Shown here: positions 7,275-45,453 of the stretch, one piece after another
How positions within the stretch are numbered: position 1 is the stretch's first letter
Layout of the letters: each line of letters opens with the position of its first letter
NCBI GenBank assembly: GCA_947625575.1
Contig: CANQOV010000002.1
Coordinates: 1,457 to 65,456, forward strand
DNA from: an uncultured Bacilli bacterium
GTDB lineage: Bacteria > Bacillota_I > Bacilli_A > RF39 > UBA660
Reading direction: 5' to 3'
Length of the DNA: 64,000 nucleotides
The notes under the pieces: generated by a model
Told to the model about the DNA's origin: nothing
The model's database searches: none
Seen by the model: only the letters and a program-made list of their open reading frames with translations
Translations under genes and position numbers: made by a program

Positions 7275-8765
7275 ATGGATATATTTTGGATAAATGGATA
7301 TTATTTGGATAAAGAACAGATTGAGGCAATTACTTCTGTAGATAAATATATATTATTATTAGCGGGAGCAGGAAGTGGGAAGACTACTACTATTGTGGGG
7401 AAAGTTAGATATTTAATTGAAGATAAAAAAATTAAAGATGAAGATATTTTATGTGTTTCTTTTACTAATAATGCGGTTTTGCATTTAAAAAAGATATTTG
7501 ATGATTATAAATATAATGTTCAAATATTTACTGTACATAAGTTGGCTTTAAATATAATTAGTGATTATACTTATTTTTCTGTTATGGAAAGTGGTTATTT
7601 ATCTTATATTATTAATGAATATTTTTCAGCAATTATTTTATCTGATGTTTTGATGATAAAGTGTGTTTTGGCATATTTTTTTAAGTTTTGTACTGGAGAT
7701 GTAGTAGAGTTTTATAAGAGTTTTTTTGTTAGTAATAAAGATAAGTTTAAAAAATTATATAATGATATTGAAAGAGTTATTAATTTATATAAAACTTTTA
7801 TGTATGATAGTAATTATTGGTTTTATATATATAATAATGTTGGGTTTAGAGATAAGATTTTAATTATTTTAATTTATAAGATTTATTTAATTTATGAAGA
7901 AGAGTTAAAGAGTTGCTCGATGATAGATTTTTCTTCGATGATAAAAAATGCTATTGAAGTTATTAAAAAGTATGGTCTTAAGAAAAAATATAAGTATGTA
8001 ATTATAGATGAAGCACAGGATATGTCTAAATTAAGATTTGAATTTATTGATAGTATTGTTAAGAAAAGTAATGCTTCTTTATTTATGGTTGGAGATGATT
8101 ATCAATCTATTTATAGGTTTAGTGGTAGTGATTTAGATTTGTTTTTAAATTTTAGTAAAATATATGGGGGTATTGTTAAAAGAATATCGATGACTTATAG
8201 AAATTCTAATGAACTTATTAGAGTTTGTTCACATTTTATTATGAGAAATCCAAGACAACTTAAAAAGAATTTATGTTGTTTAAAAAGTAATTTAAAACCT
8301 TTTAAATTTGTTTTTTATTCTAATATTAGAGTGGCTTTTAGAAAGATTATTGATAGTTTAAGTGGAAAGATTATGGTTTTATCTAGAAATAAATTTGATA
8401 TTAAAGATATATTAGATAAAGATATGATATTGTCTAATGATAAGATTATTTATAAAGAAAATAAAGATATTAGTTATTATACTGTTCATGCTTGTAAAGG
8501 TATGGAAGCTGATTATGTTATTTTGATTAATAATAGAAATGATTGTTATGGATTTCCTAGTAAAGTTAAGAATAGTAAAATATTTAAATATTTTAATCAA
8601 GATGATAAGTTTTGGTATGAAGAAGAGCGAAGACTTTTTTATGTAGCACTTACAAGGACTAAAAATGATGTTTTTTTGTTAATACCTTGTTTTAATTTTT
8701 CAATATTTATTTGGGAATTTATTATTTATTATCGAAAATATATAGAGTTTAGTTTGATTAGGTGA
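7275..8765 (+). CDS. UvrD/PcrA-like SF1 DNA helicase, unusually short (~497 aa)
   Basis: Walker A (LLLAGAGSGKTTT) and motif Ia (CVSFTNNA). Also motif II (VIIDEAQDMS), motif III (VGDDYQSIYRFSGS), motif V (YTVHACKGMEADYVILI) and motif VI (FYVALTRTKNDVFL). GGTGGGTG SD before ATG 7275. Confidence 0.75.
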   Translation: MDIFWINGYYLDKEQIEAITSVDKYILLLAGAGSGKTTTIVGKVRYLIEDKKIKDEDILCVSFTNNAVLHLKKIFDDYKYNVQIFTVHKLALNIISDYTYFSVMESGYLSYIINEYFSAIILSDVLMIKCVLAYFFKFCTGDVVEFYKSFFVSNKDKFKKLYNDIERVINLYKTFMYDSNYWFYIYNNVGFRDKILIILIYKIYLIYEEELKSCSMIDFSSMIKNAIEVIKKYGLKKKYKYVIIDEAQDMSKLRFEFIDSIVKKSNASLFMVGDDYQSIYRFSGSDLDLFLNFSKIYGGIVKRISMTYRNSNELIRVCSHFIMRNPRQLKKNLCCLKSNLKPFKFVFYSNIRVAFRKIIDSLSGKIMVLSRNKFDIKDILDKDMILSNDKIIYKENKDISYYTVHACKGMEADYVILINNRNDCYGFPSKVKNSKIFKYFNQDDKFWYEEERRLFYVALTRTKNDVFLLIPCFNFSIFIWEFIIYYRKYIEFSLIR

Positions 8766-10833: not shown

Positions 10834-10910
10834 GGTCCGTTGGTGAAGTGGCTTAACACATCACCCTCTCAAGGTGACATACACGGATTCGAATTCCGTA
10901 CGGACTACCA
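10834..10910 (+). tRNA. tRNA-Glu (anticodon CUC)
   Basis: 77-nt cloverleaf. Acceptor GGTCCGT/ACGGACU, anticodon stem TCACC/GGTGA with loop CTCTCAA, T-arm ACGGA-TTCGAAT-TCCGT, and encoded CCA. It is a close paralog of the tRNA-Glu(UUC) at 59137. Confidence 0.8.
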
Positions 10911-10942: not shown

Positions 10943-10972
10943 TTGACATTTTTGGATAAATGTGATATAATT
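10943..10972 (+). promoter_or_regulatory. sigma-A-type promoter (TTGACA-17-TGTGATATAAT, extended -10)
   Basis: Near-consensus -35 TTGACA, a 17-bp spacer, and an extended -10 TGnTATAAT, about 25 bp upstream of the ORF at 10999. Confidence 0.6.
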
Positions 10973-10998: not shown

Positions 10999-11952
10999 AT
11001 GATTTTAAATGAAGAACAAAGACAAAAGGTTAGTTCCTATGATGATTTCTATGATTATGTAGATATGTTAAAATCAGATATGGATTGGTATGAAAGAAGT
11101 GGTTTTAGCAATAAAATAATGCATTTAGGATTAGATAATGGAGAAAGATTAAGGGTTAGTTTTTCTTTGTCATCTATTGCTCATTTATTAGGTATTCAAG
11201 TTGAATATTTAAAATCTACTGGAGTTTATTCAAAAACTGCGACTGCTTATTCTATTATTAAAAGTATTATTAGTAATCCTATCAAGATAGCTAATTTAGT
11301 TGCTTGTGGATATCTTACTTGGGATAAATTTCTTTCTGATTTTGCTTTTGTAAAAGCTAATAGTTTTTGTAGAATGTTTAGTTATTTAGATGATATAAAG
11401 TTTATTTGTAAATATGATAAGTCTTCTAGTTATACAACAGGTTATAGTGCTTTGGATGGAGATTATTATGTTGCTTATCAATATAACGACGGATTATTAA
11501 TAGTGGGACTTAAAAAAGATGGAGAGTATTATAAACCAATTACTAATAGATATGTTAGTAATGATGATAAGTTTTTAAATGTTTTATTAACTAATCAAGT
11601 TGTTACTGTTCCTAATTATGTTTATATGTATTATTTAGCTACTAATACGTATGGAAATAAATTTACAATTTTTCAAGATAAGAAAATTCAAATGTTGGCA
11701 GATGCTAAAGAATATGCGGATACATATCAAGCAACTTGTGATGTAAGCCTTGGTTATTCTTATGCCCTTGGCTCTTTAATAAGGGCTAGAAATGAAAAAA
11801 TTGCTATGAAAGAAGCAATTAATTGTATATTACAAGCTCGTCCTGTTACAAATTTCACTGATTTGCCTATTGAATTAACTCAAGCAATTGAAGAATATAA
11901 TAAAAGTTTACATACACAGCTTGGTGTTGTAAGAGAAAGAAAGGAAAACTAA
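10999..11952 (+). CDS. hypothetical protein (317 aa ORFan)
   Basis: GGGGGA SD followed by ATG. No recognisable catalytic motifs. It lies immediately downstream of a tRNA and a strong promoter. Confidence 0.5.
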   Translation: MILNEEQRQKVSSYDDFYDYVDMLKSDMDWYERSGFSNKIMHLGLDNGERLRVSFSLSSIAHLLGIQVEYLKSTGVYSKTATAYSIIKSIISNPIKIANLVACGYLTWDKFLSDFAFVKANSFCRMFSYLDDIKFICKYDKSSSYTTGYSALDGDYYVAYQYNDGLLIVGLKKDGEYYKPITNRYVSNDDKFLNVLLTNQVVTVPNYVYMYYLATNTYGNKFTIFQDKKIQMLADAKEYADTYQATCDVSLGYSYALGSLIRARNEKIAMKEAINCILQARPVTNFTDLPIELTQAIEEYNKSLHTQLGVVRERKEN

Positions 11953-36854: not shown

Positions 36855-36983
36855 TTTTATTCACCTGTATAAGTTATGATTGTTTTTTGAAAAAAATATA
36901 CAAAATCGATAGACAAAATTAGTGATTTTTTCTAAATTGTATTTATTTTGTTTTTGAGATAAGGCTGACAAAGCTCTGTGTGT

Positions 36984-36992
36984 GGGGGGGGG
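36984..36992. repeat. G9 homopolymeric tract preceded by (GT)3, in a promoter region
   Basis: The sequence is gtgtgtGGGGGGGGGtgttataat. It is the only G run of this length in the window. Confidence 0.9.
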
Positions 36993-37028
36993 TGTTATAA
37001 TTAAACTTGTAAGGGTATTTACAAAATA

Positions 37029-37547
37029 ATGAAGGAGGTTTGTAAAAAAATGGAAGAGGATATAGAAACAAATTCTATCTATAGTGAGGATAAAGAAGCA
37101 TTTGAAAAAACAAGATTAGAAAACTTAAGAAAAGAAAGATTAGCTGCTATACAAAAAGCGAAAGAGAATATTCCTAGTTGGATTGAAAGAGGAAAAGCAT
37201 TAATTTTTCCAGAAAGACAAGCTGATTGGGAAAAATGTGTACGAACACACGCGAATTCTATATATAATGGAGAAGATTTAGATGCTGCATTGAAAGTTAT
37301 GGAAGTTTTAGAAAATGGTGCTACAATAGAAGAAGCAAAACAAGTTTTAAAAGAACAAGATTTTGAGCCAGCAGTTTTGCAAATTTTATTTTTATTTTCT
37401 AGTAGAGGTCCAGAATTATTTGAATCAGCTGCTTATTGGAAATTATCAGATAAGGATAAAGAGATAATTGAAGCAAAAAAACAAGAAAATGCTTGGTTAG
37501 CACAAATTAATGATTTTAGGAATAAGGGACATAAGCATAATAATTAA
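37029..37547 (+). CDS. hypothetical protein (165-172 aa ORFan)
   Basis: A GAAGGAGG SD at 37032-37039 favours ATG 37050 as the start. No recognisable domain. G+C appears slightly elevated. Confidence 0.5.
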   Translation: MKEVCKKMEEDIETNSIYSEDKEAFEKTRLENLRKERLAAIQKAKENIPSWIERGKALIFPERQADWEKCVRTHANSIYNGEDLDAALKVMEVLENGATIEEAKQVLKEQDFEPAVLQILFLFSSRGPELFESAAYWKLSDKDKEIIEAKKQENAWLAQINDFRNKGHKHNN

Positions 37548-37904: not shown

Positions 37905-38849
37905 ATGAAAGTATGTAGTAAATGTAAAAATAAAGTTAGTAATAAAACTAAGATATGTCCAAAATGTGGTAATGATGTATCTATGGCTAAAATTATTGTT
38001 GATAATAAGAAAACTAATAATAAAAAGATAACTAAACCAAAACCTGTAGAAGTAAAAGAAGAAGTTGTAGAAACAAGAAAAGTTACAAATAAAAAGAAAC
38101 AAGATCAAAAGAAAGTAAAAAAAGAAAATAAAAGTAAGATAAACATTAAAGTTGTTAAAAAGAAAAAAAGTAAATTTAAAACATTTATAGATGATTTATT
38201 TAAATCTAAAAAGAAGAAGAAAAAGAAATCTGTTAAAAAAGTTAAAGAAGTTAAAGAAATTAAAAAAGAAACTATAGTAGATGAGGATTTTAGTGATGTT
38301 AATAATAAATCTAGTAGTTTGATTTGGATTTTAATTGTTGTAGGGGTTGTTATATTTTTTACAATTTGTTGTATCGTTGTTGTTAATTTTTCTTTTGGAA
38401 AGTATGACGATGAAATTAGTAGTAAAGAATATGGTAAACATTATAAAATAGGAGATAGAGTTTTATATAATGATGTTATTTATAGTTTAAATTCTGTTAG
38501 TTTAATAAATGGTACAGAACATAGTAAACCTAAAGACGGCAATCAATTTGTTTTAGTAAGTATTAGTATGGAAAACATTGGAGATGAAAAAATAAAATAT
38601 AGTTATAGTAATTGGAAGATGAGTAATTCTAAAGATGTAGAAACATCTAGAATTTTTACACCTGTTAATGCTAGTAGTGCTCTTTATAATGGAACGTTGT
38701 ATGTAGAAAGTAGTAAAAGTGGTACAATGGTGTTTGAAGAAGCTATAGATGAAGATTTAGAACTTCGTTTTTATGAAAAGATAGAAGAAGAAAATGAAGA
38801 GCCATTATTTAAATTAATATTTGTTTATGATATTGGTAAAGTAAAATAA
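37905..38849 (+). CDS. zinc-ribbon / single-TM / DUF4352-like extracellular domain protein
   Basis: N-terminal CSKCKN ... CPKCGN zinc ribbon, a K-rich linker, a TM helix, and a C-terminal beta-rich domain. Confidence 0.55.
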   Translation: MKVCSKCKNKVSNKTKICPKCGNDVSMAKIIVDNKKTNNKKITKPKPVEVKEEVVETRKVTNKKKQDQKKVKKENKSKINIKVVKKKKSKFKTFIDDLFKSKKKKKKKSVKKVKEVKEIKKETIVDEDFSDVNNKSSSLIWILIVVGVVIFFTICCIVVVNFSFGKYDDEISSKEYGKHYKIGDRVLYNDVIYSLNSVSLINGTEHSKPKDGNQFVLVSISMENIGDEKIKYSYSNWKMSNSKDVETSRIFTPVNASSALYNGTLYVESSKSGTMVFEEAIDEDLELRFYEKIEEENEEPLFKLIFVYDIGKVK

Positions 38850-41814: not shown

Positions 41815-42204
41815 ATGAATTTAGTACCTAGAAAATTTTTCTTGGATGATTTTTTTGATGATATGGAGCCTACTTTTAGAACAAATAACATGAAGTGTGA
41901 TATCTATGAAGAAGACGGTAAATACGTTTTTGAAATGGATATACCAGGATATAATAAAGAGGATATTTCTATTGATTGTGATAAGGGATATCTAACTGTT
42001 ACTGCTTCAAAAGAAAGTAAAGATGAAGTAAGTGATAAAAATTATATTCGTAGAGAAAGAAGTTATGGCAAATGTGTAAGACAGTTTTATTTAGGCGATG
42101 TAGATGAAGAAAATATAACAGCAGAATTTAAAAATGGTATTTTAAAAGTAGTTGCTCCTAAAAAAGGCGAAATTGAAACCAAGAAAAAAATTGAAATTGA
42201 ATAA
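41815..42204 (+). CDS. Hsp20/alpha-crystallin small heat-shock protein
   Basis: Alpha-crystallin domain (DIYEEDGKYVFEMDIPGYNKEDISID ... AEFKNGILKV). AGGAGGA SD. Confidence 0.85.
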   Translation: MNLVPRKFFLDDFFDDMEPTFRTNNMKCDIYEEDGKYVFEMDIPGYNKEDISIDCDKGYLTVTASKESKDEVSDKNYIRRERSYGKCVRQFYLGDVDEENITAEFKNGILKVVAPKKGEIETKKKIEIE

Positions 42205-42211
42205 TTATAAG

Positions 42212-42240
42212 AGACTTTAGTGAAAACTAAAGTCTTTTTT
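42212..42240 (+). terminator. rho-independent terminator
   Basis: AGACTTTAGT-gaaa-ACTAAAGTCT hairpin plus T6. Confidence 0.65.
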
Positions 42241-42244
42241 GCTT

Positions 42245-42307
42245 GTAAAACTATGTGTAAAATTTATTAGTCAAATGCTTGACAATATATATATATATAT
42301 ATATAAT
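42245..42307 (+). promoter_or_regulatory. promoter cassette copy 1 (TTGACA-(TA)n spacer-TATAAT), 52-bp core repeated at 43724
   Basis: GTAAAACTATGTGTAAAATTTATTAGTCAAATGCTTGACAATATATATA recurs at 43724-43772 with one mismatch. The -35 TTGACA is at 42279-42284, the -10 TATAAT at 42302-42307, and the 17-bp spacer is entirely (AT)n. Confidence 0.65.
42285..42305. repeat. (AT)10 dinucleotide microsatellite forming the promoter spacer
   Basis: atatatatatatatatatata can be read directly from the sequence. Confidence 0.9.
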
Positions 42308-42340
42308 GGAATTATAGAAGATAGGAAGTGTGATGAAAAA

Positions 42341-43453
42341 ATGAATAGAAATTTGACAGAAGAAGAAAAAAAAGAACAGGAAAGAAGAACTTTAGAGGAA
42401 CACAAAAAAAATGTCTTTGACACATTGGAACAAGTTTTTAATGCTGAGACTTGTGGTGAATTAAAACATATTTATGAAAAAATGGTGTCTGTTGGCGGAG
42501 ATTTTCTAGGTTGGGGTGGACGTAGTAAAATTGTTAAAGGTAATAGTGATGCTACTGAAAGATTTGAAAAATTTTTTAGGTCTATGCAAATTGGTAATTG
42601 TGTAGATCCACAAGATTTTGATATGGTCCTTGCTTATTTAAAAGATGCTGGATATAAATATGATTATAATGAATGCCAGGTTAAATATCTTAATTATATG
42701 TATAATTTATATGCTTTTAGTGCTAATAAGGGTTTATCTAATTTCTATGTAGATAGTTTGACTGTTGAAAATCTTGATAAATTAGGAGAATTATCAAGGC
42801 ATACAAGGGAAGACAGAAAAGTTTCAATTAATGACCATGCAATAAATTTAAGTGGTAATGATAGGTCCCCTAATATTTATCTTGCACCTAATAATACTTA
42901 TCGTGTTGAGAACATGATTGCATCGCTTCAAAAATCTCTTGTTGATGCTGAAAAAACATTGCCTGCTTATAGGGAAAAGTATAAGCAAATAGAAGATAAA
43001 TATTATAAGATGTTATTTGACTATAGAAAGAAAAGTGTTTTTGGCAGACTTGTATCACATATTAGAGGAGAATACAAAGAATTAAGGTCAGAATTGACTT
43101 CTATGAAACAAGAAATGGAAAAATTAAAAACTTTGGGCTTAAGTCAAATGACTTCTATACAGAAAGCAAAAAACTTTGAAGAATTAAGAGAAAAAAATGA
43201 TGATGAAAGGGAAAAATTTCAAAAAGAATCAAGGAATTTAGAATATAAGAAAAGAGATGCTGAAAAAGAAATGAAGGAAGGAGACGTGAAAATGAGAACT
43301 GTTGGGAAAATTGATGATGCTTTGCGTGATTTGCGTAATGATTATGAGGCAAATTCAAATTTTGTTTATGGTGAACGAAATTCTGAGCCTTTGTTAAAAC
43401 CTATTGAAGTTCCAGAGCTTTCTGAAGATGAAAATACAGGGAGGTCTAGATAA
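42341..43453 (+). CDS. hypothetical protein, ORFan A (370 aa; N-terminal globular region and a long C-terminal coiled coil)
   Basis: Composition is atypical for the host (richer in R, G, Q and C codons, higher G+C). There is no stop over 1.1 kb. Confidence 0.55.
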   Translation: MNRNLTEEEKKEQERRTLEEHKKNVFDTLEQVFNAETCGELKHIYEKMVSVGGDFLGWGGRSKIVKGNSDATERFEKFFRSMQIGNCVDPQDFDMVLAYLKDAGYKYDYNECQVKYLNYMYNLYAFSANKGLSNFYVDSLTVENLDKLGELSRHTREDRKVSINDHAINLSGNDRSPNIYLAPNNTYRVENMIASLQKSLVDAEKTLPAYREKYKQIEDKYYKMLFDYRKKSVFGRLVSHIRGEYKELRSELTSMKQEMEKLKTLGLSQMTSIQKAKNFEELREKNDDEREKFQKESRNLEYKKRDAEKEMKEGDVKMRTVGKIDDALRDLRNDYEANSNFVYGERNSEPLLKPIEVPELSEDENTGRSR

Positions 43454-43455
43454 AA

Positions 43456-43707
43456 ATGGAAGAATTAAATGAGTTGGTTGAATCTTTTTTAGAGTTAACG
43501 ACAGAAGATCAAAAAGATGAAATTGAAAAAGAGATTAAGGCAATGATTATTGCTTTAAATGGTATTAGTGATGATAAAAGTTTTGTAGAGATTCCAAAAG
43601 TGGAAGATTATGAAAGATATGGTATGATTTATGCTTTATTACATGGTTTAGAATATGAAATTAATAAATTTGTTAAAGATAAGATACCAGAAGAGGATGT
43701 CATGTGA
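43456..43707 (+). CDS. small acidic protein, ORFan B (83 aa)
   Basis: Its start lies 2 nt after the ORFan A stop, with a GGGAGG SD inside the ORFan A 3' end. It is highly acidic and helical. Confidence 0.5.
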   Translation: MEELNELVESFLELTTEDQKDEIEKEIKAMIIALNGISDDKSFVEIPKVEDYERYGMIYALLHGLEYEINKFVKDKIPEEDVM

Positions 43708-43722
43708 CATCTTTTTTTTGTT
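43696..43722 (+). terminator. palindromic terminator GATGTCATGTGACATC + T8 (copy 1 of 2)
   Basis: A perfect 16-bp palindrome followed by T8. An identical 33-bp string recurs at 44799-44831. Confidence 0.6.
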
Positions 43723-43807
43723 AGTAAAACTATGTGTAAAATTTATTAGTTAAATGCTTGACAATATATATACTGGAATTGTAAGGTTATAACATAGGAG
43801 GTTATTT

Positions 43808-44791
43808 ATGGAAAGTAATGTTAGATCTACAGATGATAGCGGAAGATTAAATGGGGTTATTGCTAAACTTGATCAATTATTAACTGAATTAGGTGTTGAT
43901 TCTAAATTCAGAGATAATCCTGCATATCAAGATGTGTTAATGAAAATAAGAGGAGCAATGCCAGTTAGAGATATTGAAATTTTAAGTGCTTTTATTGAAA
44001 ATGGTGTGATTTCTTTTAGCACACTAACAGAGAAACGTCAGCAATGCTATGTCGAAGTAACAGCAGGGCCAAATGGAATTCGTTGTGTTTCTTCTTGCAA
44101 TTTTCCAGATAAATTTGATGAAACAAAAGGAGGATACAGTACTACATATCAAAGTGATATAGTAAATGCCCGTGTTGATTCAAATGGACGTATTGCTGTG
44201 CTTAGTGGCTCAACTTTACTTGATGATACTGGTTTGGTATCTGGTACTATGTGTCGTTCAAATTTTTCTAAAGAAATTTATTCTGCTGAAGGAATTGTAG
44301 TAGAGCATGAGTTAGGGCAAACTAAAGAAGGGAGAATTAATTCTTTTGCGTATTTTGACCGTAATAATTCTCTTGAAATTGCTACCTATCCTGTACATTT
44401 TTATCAAAATGATAATATTTGGAATAATTGTGCTTTTATTTCATCTCTTCAATCTTACAGTAAAGTGCAAAGAAAAAATATTGATACAGCTTCTGTATAT
44501 TCTTTTGATAAAGATAATGATAGTGAAGAGAGAGCTACAGTAGAGCTTGGTGGACCGGATTATAGCCACATGCAAGTGATGAGTGTAGAAAATTATCCAG
44601 ATCAACATGTTATTATACCACCTTTATCAACTGAACGTATTGAAGAAATGGTTTCTTATCAAACAAATCCTAAAGTTCAAGAAGGATTAAGAAAAATGGC
44701 TGTTGGTCGAGAAAATTATTCTTATGATTCTTTGAAAGATCCTACATTTAAATATGTTGGACCTCAAGAACAAGCGGGTGTAAGTAGATAA
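43808..44791 (+). CDS. hypothetical protein, ORFan C (327 aa)
   Basis: AGGAGG SD 7 nt upstream. It is preceded by promoter cassette copy 2 and followed by terminator copy 2. Composition is atypical. Confidence 0.55.
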   Translation: MESNVRSTDDSGRLNGVIAKLDQLLTELGVDSKFRDNPAYQDVLMKIRGAMPVRDIEILSAFIENGVISFSTLTEKRQQCYVEVTAGPNGIRCVSSCNFPDKFDETKGGYSTTYQSDIVNARVDSNGRIAVLSGSTLLDDTGLVSGTMCRSNFSKEIYSAEGIVVEHELGQTKEGRINSFAYFDRNNSLEIATYPVHFYQNDNIWNNCAFISSLQSYSKVQRKNIDTASVYSFDKDNDSEERATVELGGPDYSHMQVMSVENYPDQHVIIPPLSTERIEEMVSYQTNPKVQEGLRKMAVGRENYSYDSLKDPTFKYVGPQEQAGVSR

Positions 44792-44798
44792 TTTAATA

Positions 44799-44825
44799 GA
44801 TGTCATGTGACATCTTTTTTTTGTT
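44799..44825 (+). terminator. palindromic terminator GATGTCATGTGACATC + T8 (copy 2 of 2)
   Basis: Identical to 43696-43722. Confidence 0.6.
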
Positions 44826-45453
44826 AGTAAAGTAAAGTTATTTTTTTATTTATTTCTTTTATTAGTCCGTCATCTTTTAAGGCTTTTATTTCTCTTGCCA
44901 TAGCACTTCTATTTATTGATAGGTAGTCTGCTAGAAATGAGTAAGTAAATGGTAAGTTAAATGATTTACTCATATTTTCTTTGGATAGTTTATTAAAGTA
45001 AGCTAATAGTTTTTCTCTTATTGATCTTTTGGTTAATATTTCTATTCTTATGGTTTGTTCTATTATTTTATCTTTGAAGATATTAAATAAGTTTTCTATT
45101 AGTTTGTTGGTATTTTTATTAGGGTTTTTTATGATATCATCATAGTTTATAAATAATATTTTTGATGTTGTTGTGGCTATTAGAGATGTTTCGTTATTAT
45201 CCATTTGATAGAATATGTCACTAAAGATATCTCCTTGGTTTAAGTGTTCTATTATTGTTCTATCTCCGTTGTAGTCATAACGTACTAAATCTATTTGTCC
45301 TTCTTCAATTATACCTATTAGATTTGAGTTGTTGACGTAAGATGCAATTGTCTTATTTTTTGTAAATATAACTTGGGTTGACTGTAAAGAATTTAAAAGA
45401 TTTTTTTTCTCGTTTTCATCAATTCCTTGAAAAATAAGGGGTTTGTTTAACAT
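44824..45453 (-). CDS. Crp/Fnr-family transcriptional regulator
   Basis: N-terminal cNMP-binding beta-roll (GIIEEGQIDLVRYDYNGDRTIIEHLNQGDIFSD) and a C-terminal HTH (FTYSFLADYLSINRSAMAREIKALKDDGLI). Confidence 0.8.
   Translation of the reverse strand: MLNKPLIFQGIDENEKKNLLNSLQSTQVIFTKNKTIASYVNNSNLIGIIEEGQIDLVRYDYNGDRTIIEHLNQGDIFSDIFYQMDNNETSLIATTTSKILFINYDDIIKNPNKNTNKLIENLFNIFKDKIIEQTIRIEILTKRSIREKLLAYFNKLSKENMSKSFNLPFTYSFLADYLSINRSAMAREIKALKDDGLIKEINKKITLLY

Follow-up and report, generated by a model that had tools for sequence, protein, structure and literature searches.

The ORFan A-B operon lies in an inserted block of the 64-kb window (the whole stretch of DNA that was analysed, 64,000 nucleotides) and appears to be served by a sigma-70/sigma-A-type promoter whose −35/−10 spacer is a (TA)10 microsatellite, in the layout of a switch with a single ON state. 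Judging from the sequence, we give this reading an even chance of being correct. The promoter at 42279–42307 is itself very likely to be real and strong, and its use as a reversible switch is in our estimate about evenly balanced. The tract is uninterrupted and of slip length, it lies in the spacer, and it has a paralogue of different length. We regard the locus as a candidate addition to the established Vmm/hif-type spacer switches, in which switching is plausible. The elements of the site are the following.

42279–42284, plus strand: −35 hexamer TTGACA (sequence read and consensus scan)
42285–42301: 17-nt spacer ATATATATATATATATA between TTGACA and TATAAT
42302–42307, plus strand: −10 hexamer TATAAT (sequence read and consensus scan)
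42286–42305, no strand: (TA)10 microsatellite, equally (AT)10A at 42285–42305

The site reads cTTGACA-ATATATATATATATATA-TATAAT-gg and scored 12/12 in the consensus scan with a spacer of 17 nt. The hexamer coordinates and the 17-nt spacer of alternating AT in the initial annotation were read here exactly as claimed. Its statement that the repeat spans the spacer exactly was right in that the spacer lies wholly within the tract, but the tract also runs into the −10 element: (TA)10 fills all 17 nt and in addition donates TATA, the first four bases of the −10 hexamer. The perfect (TA)10 is thus an uninterrupted simple sequence repeat capable of slippage, located inside the −35/−10 spacer of a promoter predicted from sequence and position. 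Transcription would start near 42314, about 7 nt past 42307. A promoter-like site on the minus strand (42339–42311) excludes the TA tract.

The number of TA tracts was compared with the expectation from a first-order Markov model of the window, which has a GC content of 26.2%. Tracts of at least four units were observed 7 times in 64 kb (11 expected) and tracts of at least five units twice (1.3 expected), whereas one tract of at least ten units was observed against an expectation of 2.3e-5. No other TA tract in the 64-kb window exceeds five units; (TA)5 tracts are found at 7824–7833 and 1822–1831. Short tracts sit at background and (TA)10 does not, which indicates that it is a real microsatellite. 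These numbers agree with the earlier contention that a dinucleotide repeat placed in this way is unlikely to be accidental.

To relate unit number to promoter state, the region was rebuilt in silico with n=3 to 14 TA units. Spacer length followed 2n−3, and n=10 alone therefore yields TATAAT at 17 nt. A tract of nine units shortens the spacer to 15 nt, and the hexamers at 16–18 nt then match at no more than 2/6 positions; for all n≤9 the usable −10 is gone. At n=11 the spacer is 19 nt, and for n≥11 only TTGACA-17-TATATA is left, with 4/6 matches and without the T at −7. Activity of sigma-70 promoters drops steeply beyond spacers of 16–18 nt, and the T at −7 is almost invariant. The scan predicts one ON state, with contraction giving a dead promoter and expansion a weak one, and the arrangement is thereby suited to the promoter-spacer switch that had been proposed for it. 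In the proposed mechanism, slipped-strand mispairing would alter the tract by 2-nt steps around n=10, where a perfect consensus would coincide with the optimal spacer. Loss of one unit would leave no alternative −10, and gain of one unit would leave only a hexamer that lacks the conserved −7 T. Such a layout would be that of a single-ON-state contingency promoter, comparable to Vmm/Vmc of the Mycoplasma mycoides cluster and to hifA/hifB of Haemophilus influenzae. Because n=10 gives the consensus with a 17-nt spacer, the operon would be ON in every sequence seen. Promoter activity, the slippage rate and the ON/OFF effect are what we infer from this design.

The genes upstream of the site encode RNase III, guanylate kinase, a 121-aa membrane protein and Hsp20 (41815–42204). 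The promoter directly follows the hsp20 terminator and stands about 26 nt 5' of the translation signals of ORFan A, its ribosome-binding site and ATG (42341). From the terminator onwards the locus is laid out as follows.

42209–42238, plus strand: hsp20 intrinsic terminator, 13-bp stem followed by a T run (terminator scan; fold −14.5 kcal/mol)
42235–42293, plus strand: copy 1 of the promoter module; this 59-nt direct repeat matches 43714–43772 at 95% identity (repeat search)
42323–42328, plus strand: Shine-Dalgarno-like AGGAAG (read from the sequence)
42333–42344, plus strand: 3-codon mini-ORF ATG AAA AAA TGA, starting 4 nt past AGGAAG
42341–43453, plus strand: ORFan A, 370 aa (ORF)
43456–43707, plus strand: ORFan B, 83 aa, starting 2 nt past the ORFan A stop
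43696–43728, plus strand: terminator module T2 copy beta (GATGTCATGTGACATC, T8, GTTAGTAAA; fold −12.5 kcal/mol)
43714–43772, plus strand: promoter module copy 2, with TTGACA at 43758–43763 and (TA)4 at 43765–43772
43808–44791, plus strand: ORFan C, 327 aa, with a strong ribosome-binding site AGGAGG
44799–44831, plus strand: terminator module T2 copy gamma, 33 nt, 100% identical to 43696–43728
44824–45453, minus strand: crp-like (Crp/Fnr-family) gene, convergent

The stop of the mini-ORF overlaps the start codon of ORFan A (ATGA). Ribosomes might therefore reach ORFan A by translational coupling, in place of initiating directly at a start 12 nt from the ribosome-binding site. T2 copy beta encloses the ORFan B stop codon, and the convergent crp-like gene ends within T2 copy gamma, whose last 8 nt are the stop and final codons of that gene. 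Elsewhere the window carries genes for GyrA/ParC, AddAB-like nucleases, LigA, phosphoketolase, UvdE and NrdD, and on account of these genes the region is taken to be chromosomal. The AddAB-type genes, together with the RNase HII/HIII-type gene found beside ORFan C homologues, suggest a host that we take to be of low-GC Bacillota type, using genetic code 11.

In a related species (L092 and L093, Hsp20 86% identical) hsp20 is followed by a 28-nt hairpin and then by the convergent crp-like gene, the adjacency lying at L092 690–790. Since hsp20 and crp are adjacent there, the A-B-C block is a lineage-specific insertion of about 2.6 kb, and the promoter is part of inserted DNA that brings expression signals of its own. 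In a second relative (L090, 84% identical) a YfhO-like gene occupies the insertion position. Neither the module nor a TA tract of at least six units was present in the relatives L090, L092 and L093. In the closest relative found (L094 1010–1040, Hsp20 88% identical) TTTTTATT(TA)5GTTAATCC comes after the hsp20 terminator, and the contig ends 22 nt further on. A guanylate kinase search of genome contigs returned only Bacteroidales and similar sequences at about 50% identity and gave no synteny information. GC content is 30% in ORFan A and 33% in ORFan C against 23–28% in the neighbouring genes, and a T-run followed by the motif G(C/T)T(T/A)GTAAA occurs at 3/3 junctions (42233–42247, 43714–43728 and 44817–44831). 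No integrase or transposase was found within the block.

The layout bears directly on whether the hexamers act as a promoter at all. A neutral microsatellite could lie by coincidence beside unused hexamers; DNA of 26% GC is rich in consensus-like hexamers (23 loose matches in the window against 29 in shuffles), and any TA tract automatically supplies the TATA of a −10. Perfect TTGACA-N16-18-TATAAT sites, however, occurred 3 times in the window where shuffles gave 0.13, an enrichment of about 20-fold, and 3/3 of these 12/12 sites (10943, 41764 before hsp20, and 42279) are intergenic and on the same strand as the downstream gene. Terminator, promoter, ribosome-binding site and ATG stand in the correct order with correct spacing. 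Furthermore, the inserted operon needs a promoter of its own, because the block lies downstream of the −14.5 kcal/mol terminator. We consider coincidence very unlikely.

The same tract could in principle act in translation. If the true start of ORFan A were ATG 42275, giving a protein of 392 aa, the tract would be read as (Ile-Tyr)3, a gain or loss of units would shift the frame and the peptide MLDNIYIYIYNG would be expected. Automated gene calls on L001 and L002 do start at ATG 42275 and run through the TA tract for 392 aa, and only with n=7, 10 or 13 does the long frame stay open. This ATG nonetheless has no Shine-Dalgarno sequence 5' of it, lies upstream of the −35 and is only 37 nt past the hsp20 terminator; the matching sequence of copy 2 is non-coding, with a stop after 12 codons, and a ribosome-binding site with ATG 42341 stands at the right distance from the promoter. 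We find a frameshift switch scarcely credible, and the locus was rejected as an intragenic repeat of that kind, since 42275 is without a ribosome-binding site and upstream of the −35.

A promoter module shared by two sites allows the history of the tract to be followed, and it is present in just two copies in the window. The alignment shows a single base difference between the copies over the stretch from AAACTATGTG to the end of TTGACAATATATATA. Copy 1 then continues with six further TA units and ATGGAATT, whereas copy 2 has A(TA)4 after TTGACA and passes directly into CTGGAATT. The 12-nt difference consists of TA units only, and the tract has therefore changed length, by expansion or contraction, at least once since the duplication. 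Exact-pattern scans of genome and metagenome contigs with the module pattern (TTAGTYAAATGCTTGACAATATATA) gave no match.

In copy 2 a −10-like TATACT lies only 5 nt past TTGACA, and the hexamers at 16–18 nt are TGTAAG, GTAAGG and TAAGGT, none of them a usable −10; by its sequence copy 2 reads as a non-consensus promoter. T2 is a fairly good terminator, and ORFan C therefore probably depends on a weak promoter (e.g. TTAGTT-17-TATACT) or on read-through. The initial annotation had placed the promoter copy of ORFan C at 43761 and described it as having lost the repeat. The shorter (TA)4 agrees with that description, but TTGACA is at 43758–43763. That only ORFans A and B would be switchable, as had been suggested, is an inference.

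The products of the block give few clues to its role. ORFan A is all-helical with a long C-terminal coiled coil, and ORFan B is very acidic (net charge −14). Searches for homologues of ORFan A among 5.8 billion clustered proteins, and with full HMMER among 1.84 billion representatives, found none but ORFan A itself. Relatives of ORFan C were limited to proteins of about 29% identity in other low-GC bacteria (L084, L085 and L086), where they adjoin an RNase HII/HIII-type gene (Pfam RNase_HII plus DUF3378). For all three ORFans, Pfam, PADLOC, PHROGs and NCBIfam gave no match that attained a curated cut-off, for those families that have one. A single match fell below E=1e-3, that of ORFan B to a helicase-annotated PHROG (E=1.5e-4), and was judged uninformative; the remaining family matches were weak coiled-coil or low-complexity ones. 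Sequence searches of solved structures were negative for the ORFan proteins, and no ORFan match was found in phages and plasmids (tblastn) or in viral contigs. AlphaFold2 models had a pLDDT of 52 for ORFan A and 40 for ORFan C and were unusable. Neither a signal peptide nor a transmembrane segment was detected in ORFans A, B or C (maximum KD19 ≤1.18; hydrophilic N-termini), and from their sequences they are predicted to be soluble orphans. The absence of signal peptides, transmembrane segments and known families sets them apart from typical contingency genes; a surface, host-interaction or restriction-modification product, which was not found here, is typical of such loci and not strictly defining.

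Exact lookups showed that the locus is rare, with contigs in just four ENA metagenome assemblies whose accessions span a narrow range (ERZ27249386, ERZ27249389, ERZ27249395 and ERZ27249684), besides an NCBI record from which the window itself seems to come. Copy 1 is (TA)10 in the window and in L001, L002 and L088, that is, in four samples, and copy 2 is (TA)4 in the window and in L001, L002, L088 and L089. The heterogeneity in TA count that slippage might have left was thus not seen in these sequences, which as near-clonal material form a weak test. The contigs are 99.7–100% identical to the window and differ only by private singletons typical of about 2x coverage; because they are near-clonal and so thinly covered, minor TA alleles would be invisible. 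The constancy of n=10 would thus speak for no more than ON as the majority state across the four samples. In L088 (sample ERZ27249684) position 37, which corresponds to window 42279, carries a T-to-G change that makes the −35 GTGACA, either a promoter-down variant or a low-coverage error. Contigs of ERZ27249684 break between L003, which ends at 42233, and L088, which starts at 42243; this break was not taken as heterogeneity because coverage is about 2x.

These comparisons weigh most on the main alternative, a fixed strong promoter whose TA tract is a product of slippage within AT-rich intergenic sequence and does not serve as a switch. The tract would then supply the spacer by chance or by selection, and its ten units would be kept by purifying selection together with mismatch repair, a pathway that suppresses slippage of dinucleotide repeats in bacteria proficient for it. 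Consistent with a fixed promoter, n=10 was found in 4/4 assemblies, the distant ORFan C homologue in L084 and L085 has an ordinary TTGACA-17-TGgTATAAT promoter without a repeat, and the genes fall outside the surface and restriction-modification classes usual for contingency loci. The compared assemblies are, however, one clone, so that constancy of n=10 carries little weight, and the paralogue differs by exactly six TA units. In addition, a perfect (TA)10 has been intrinsically mutable wherever tested (PMC2651432, PMC10448532, PMC3053259). A fixed promoter is a real possibility that we hold to be less probable than not, and the single-ON-state switch is the reading that we carry forward.

The tract might instead work at constant length, as a cruciform or an easily melted, supercoiling-sensitive spacer that tunes the promoter. 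It is self-complementary, and in a single-strand DNA fold it forms an 8-bp TA hairpin, with a total free energy of −5.8 kcal/mol (z = −1.97). That hairpin is weak and marginal over shuffles (8/200 fold as well), and comparative support is absent. We judge a structural role of this sort highly improbable as the explanation of the tract, although it is compatible with slippage and does not exclude it.

The first hairpin in the same DNA fold is made by a palindrome, GTCAA-ATGC-TTGAC (42271–42284, no strand, read from the sequence), which overlaps the −35 of copy 1. Its counterpart in copy 2 (43750–43763) has one mismatch, GTTAA. Speculatively, the palindrome could be an operator for a dimeric regulator, and the Crp/Fnr-family gene on the minus strand (44824–45453) adjoins the block that bears it. 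A CRP/FNR-type box in the conserved upstream part of the module was considered and rejected; only a poor half-site (TGTGT-N6-TATTA) was found, in an atypical position.

At a wider scale, the two units of the block (42235–44831) share the 59-nt, 95% identical promoter module at the 5' end and the identical 33-nt terminator module at the 3' end. The 2.6-kb block could on this basis consist of tandem self-contained cassettes, P-A-B-T and P-C-T, that carry a portable TA contingency promoter for stochastic ON/OFF expression of orphan genes, a reading that we regard as unlikely. It would involve insertion at the shared terminator of two convergent genes, a promoter module that works at n=10 and has collapsed in its n=4 copy, and orphan cytoplasmic genes that might form, for example, an unrecognised defence or toxin module. 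The conserved ends of the ORFan units prompted a comparison with integron gene cassettes, for which attC with RYYYAAC and GTTRRRY cores and an integrase with attI nearby were sought. The GTTAGTA junction does not fit GTTRRRY, the inverse core is absent upstream and the block contains no integrase-like ORF; moreover, both units have their own promoter, unlike integron cassettes. Integron cassettes were rejected on these grounds.

Other sites of the window were recorded in the same survey. A G9 homopolymer (36984–36992) follows (TG)4 and lies directly 5' of an extended −10, TGtTATAAT (36993–37001), before an orphan 165-aa ORF (37050–37547) without a Pfam match. It is a marked outlier, as the 26% GC window has no other G or C run of at least six. 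The nearest −35-like sequence is CTGACA (36965–36970), 25 nt from the −10, and G9 is also present in L087, the one other contig found. L087, from the same strain, is without 22 nt (38383–38404) inside a DUF4352/EssA-like gene (37905–38849), either a frame-shifting indel polymorphism or an assembly error at 2.5x coverage. The third perfect promoter, TTGACA-17-TATAAT at 10943–10971, lies just past tRNA-Glu (10834–10910) and precedes a gene (10999–11952) for a 317-aa protein with a weak PBECR4 match (phage barnase/EndoU/RelE-like nuclease); this gene may be a further acquisition of toxin or defence type.

Should the tract switch, a Vmm/hif-type switch would operate in an uncultured gut-type bacterium of 26% GC and govern soluble orphans, which would suggest that repeat-driven contingency control is wider, and extends to more gene classes, than pathogen-centred surveys imply. 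The locus would also be a very clean natural test case, with its n=10 optimum, perfect hexamers and locked n=4 paralogue. Without switching, it would amount to an ordinary strong promoter whose spacer is unusual. Were the cassette arrangement to prove true, Vmm-type switching would extend past surface antigens, Mollicutes and pathogens, and ORFan cassettes bounded by a promoter and a terminator could, if general, be a way of acquiring genes.

The comparison with the hif fimbrial promoter of Haemophilus made in the initial annotation is valid in kind (PMC2651432, PMC3899988), and a closer precedent is found in the (TA)n spacers of the Mycoplasma mycoides cluster. In M. mycoides, five or six tracts of this kind stand before lipoprotein genes. 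Papers on the cluster describe Vmm, Vmc and JCVISYN3A_0481 as (TA)n spacer switches (PMC10502178, PMC2628566, PMC3053259, PMC10448532). In syn3A_0481 expression is off at (TA)13, and selection repeatedly yielded shortened alleles that were on (PMC10448532), and poly-TA tracts before lipoprotein genes of the cluster range from N=10 to 16 (PMC3053259). As those papers present them, these systems resemble the present locus in the position of (TA)n, which separates −35 from −10 in a sigma-A-type promoter, in their very AT-rich host, a relative of the low-GC Gram-positives, in being ON only at particular lengths (here predicted) and in having similar promoter copies with different TA counts. According to the same papers, the genes under Vmm-type promoters code for surface lipoproteins and have a conserved signal-peptide region in common, whereas the products here are predicted soluble orphans, and length variation was seen experimentally, whereas n=10 was found throughout four near-clonal assemblies. 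Also unlike the Vmm type, the similarity of the copies ends here soon after the tract, and one copy has collapsed to (TA)4.

In H. influenzae, hifA/hifB have (TA)9–11 in the −35/−10 spacer and change by 2-nt steps (PMC2651432, PMC3899988), as the tract described here would. Some strains, R2866 among them, have a locked hif allele with a degenerate (TA)4ATTA (PMC2651432) that resembles copy 2. The hif tract is common to two overlapping divergent promoters and controls fimbriae in a Gram-negative pathogen, whereas the present promoter is unidirectional. Slip-capable dinucleotide repeats had roughly at least five units in the H. influenzae survey (PMC2651432), and the known TA switches have 9–16 (PMC2651432, PMC3053259). 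Homopolymer spacers such as the poly-G of Neisseria porA and the poly-A of Mycoplasma hyorhinis vlp likewise alter the −35/−10 distance by slippage (PMC3899988, PMC10502178); they are mononucleotide tracts that move by 1-nt steps and give graded levels, whereas the (TA)10 tract would move by 2-nt steps round a single optimum.
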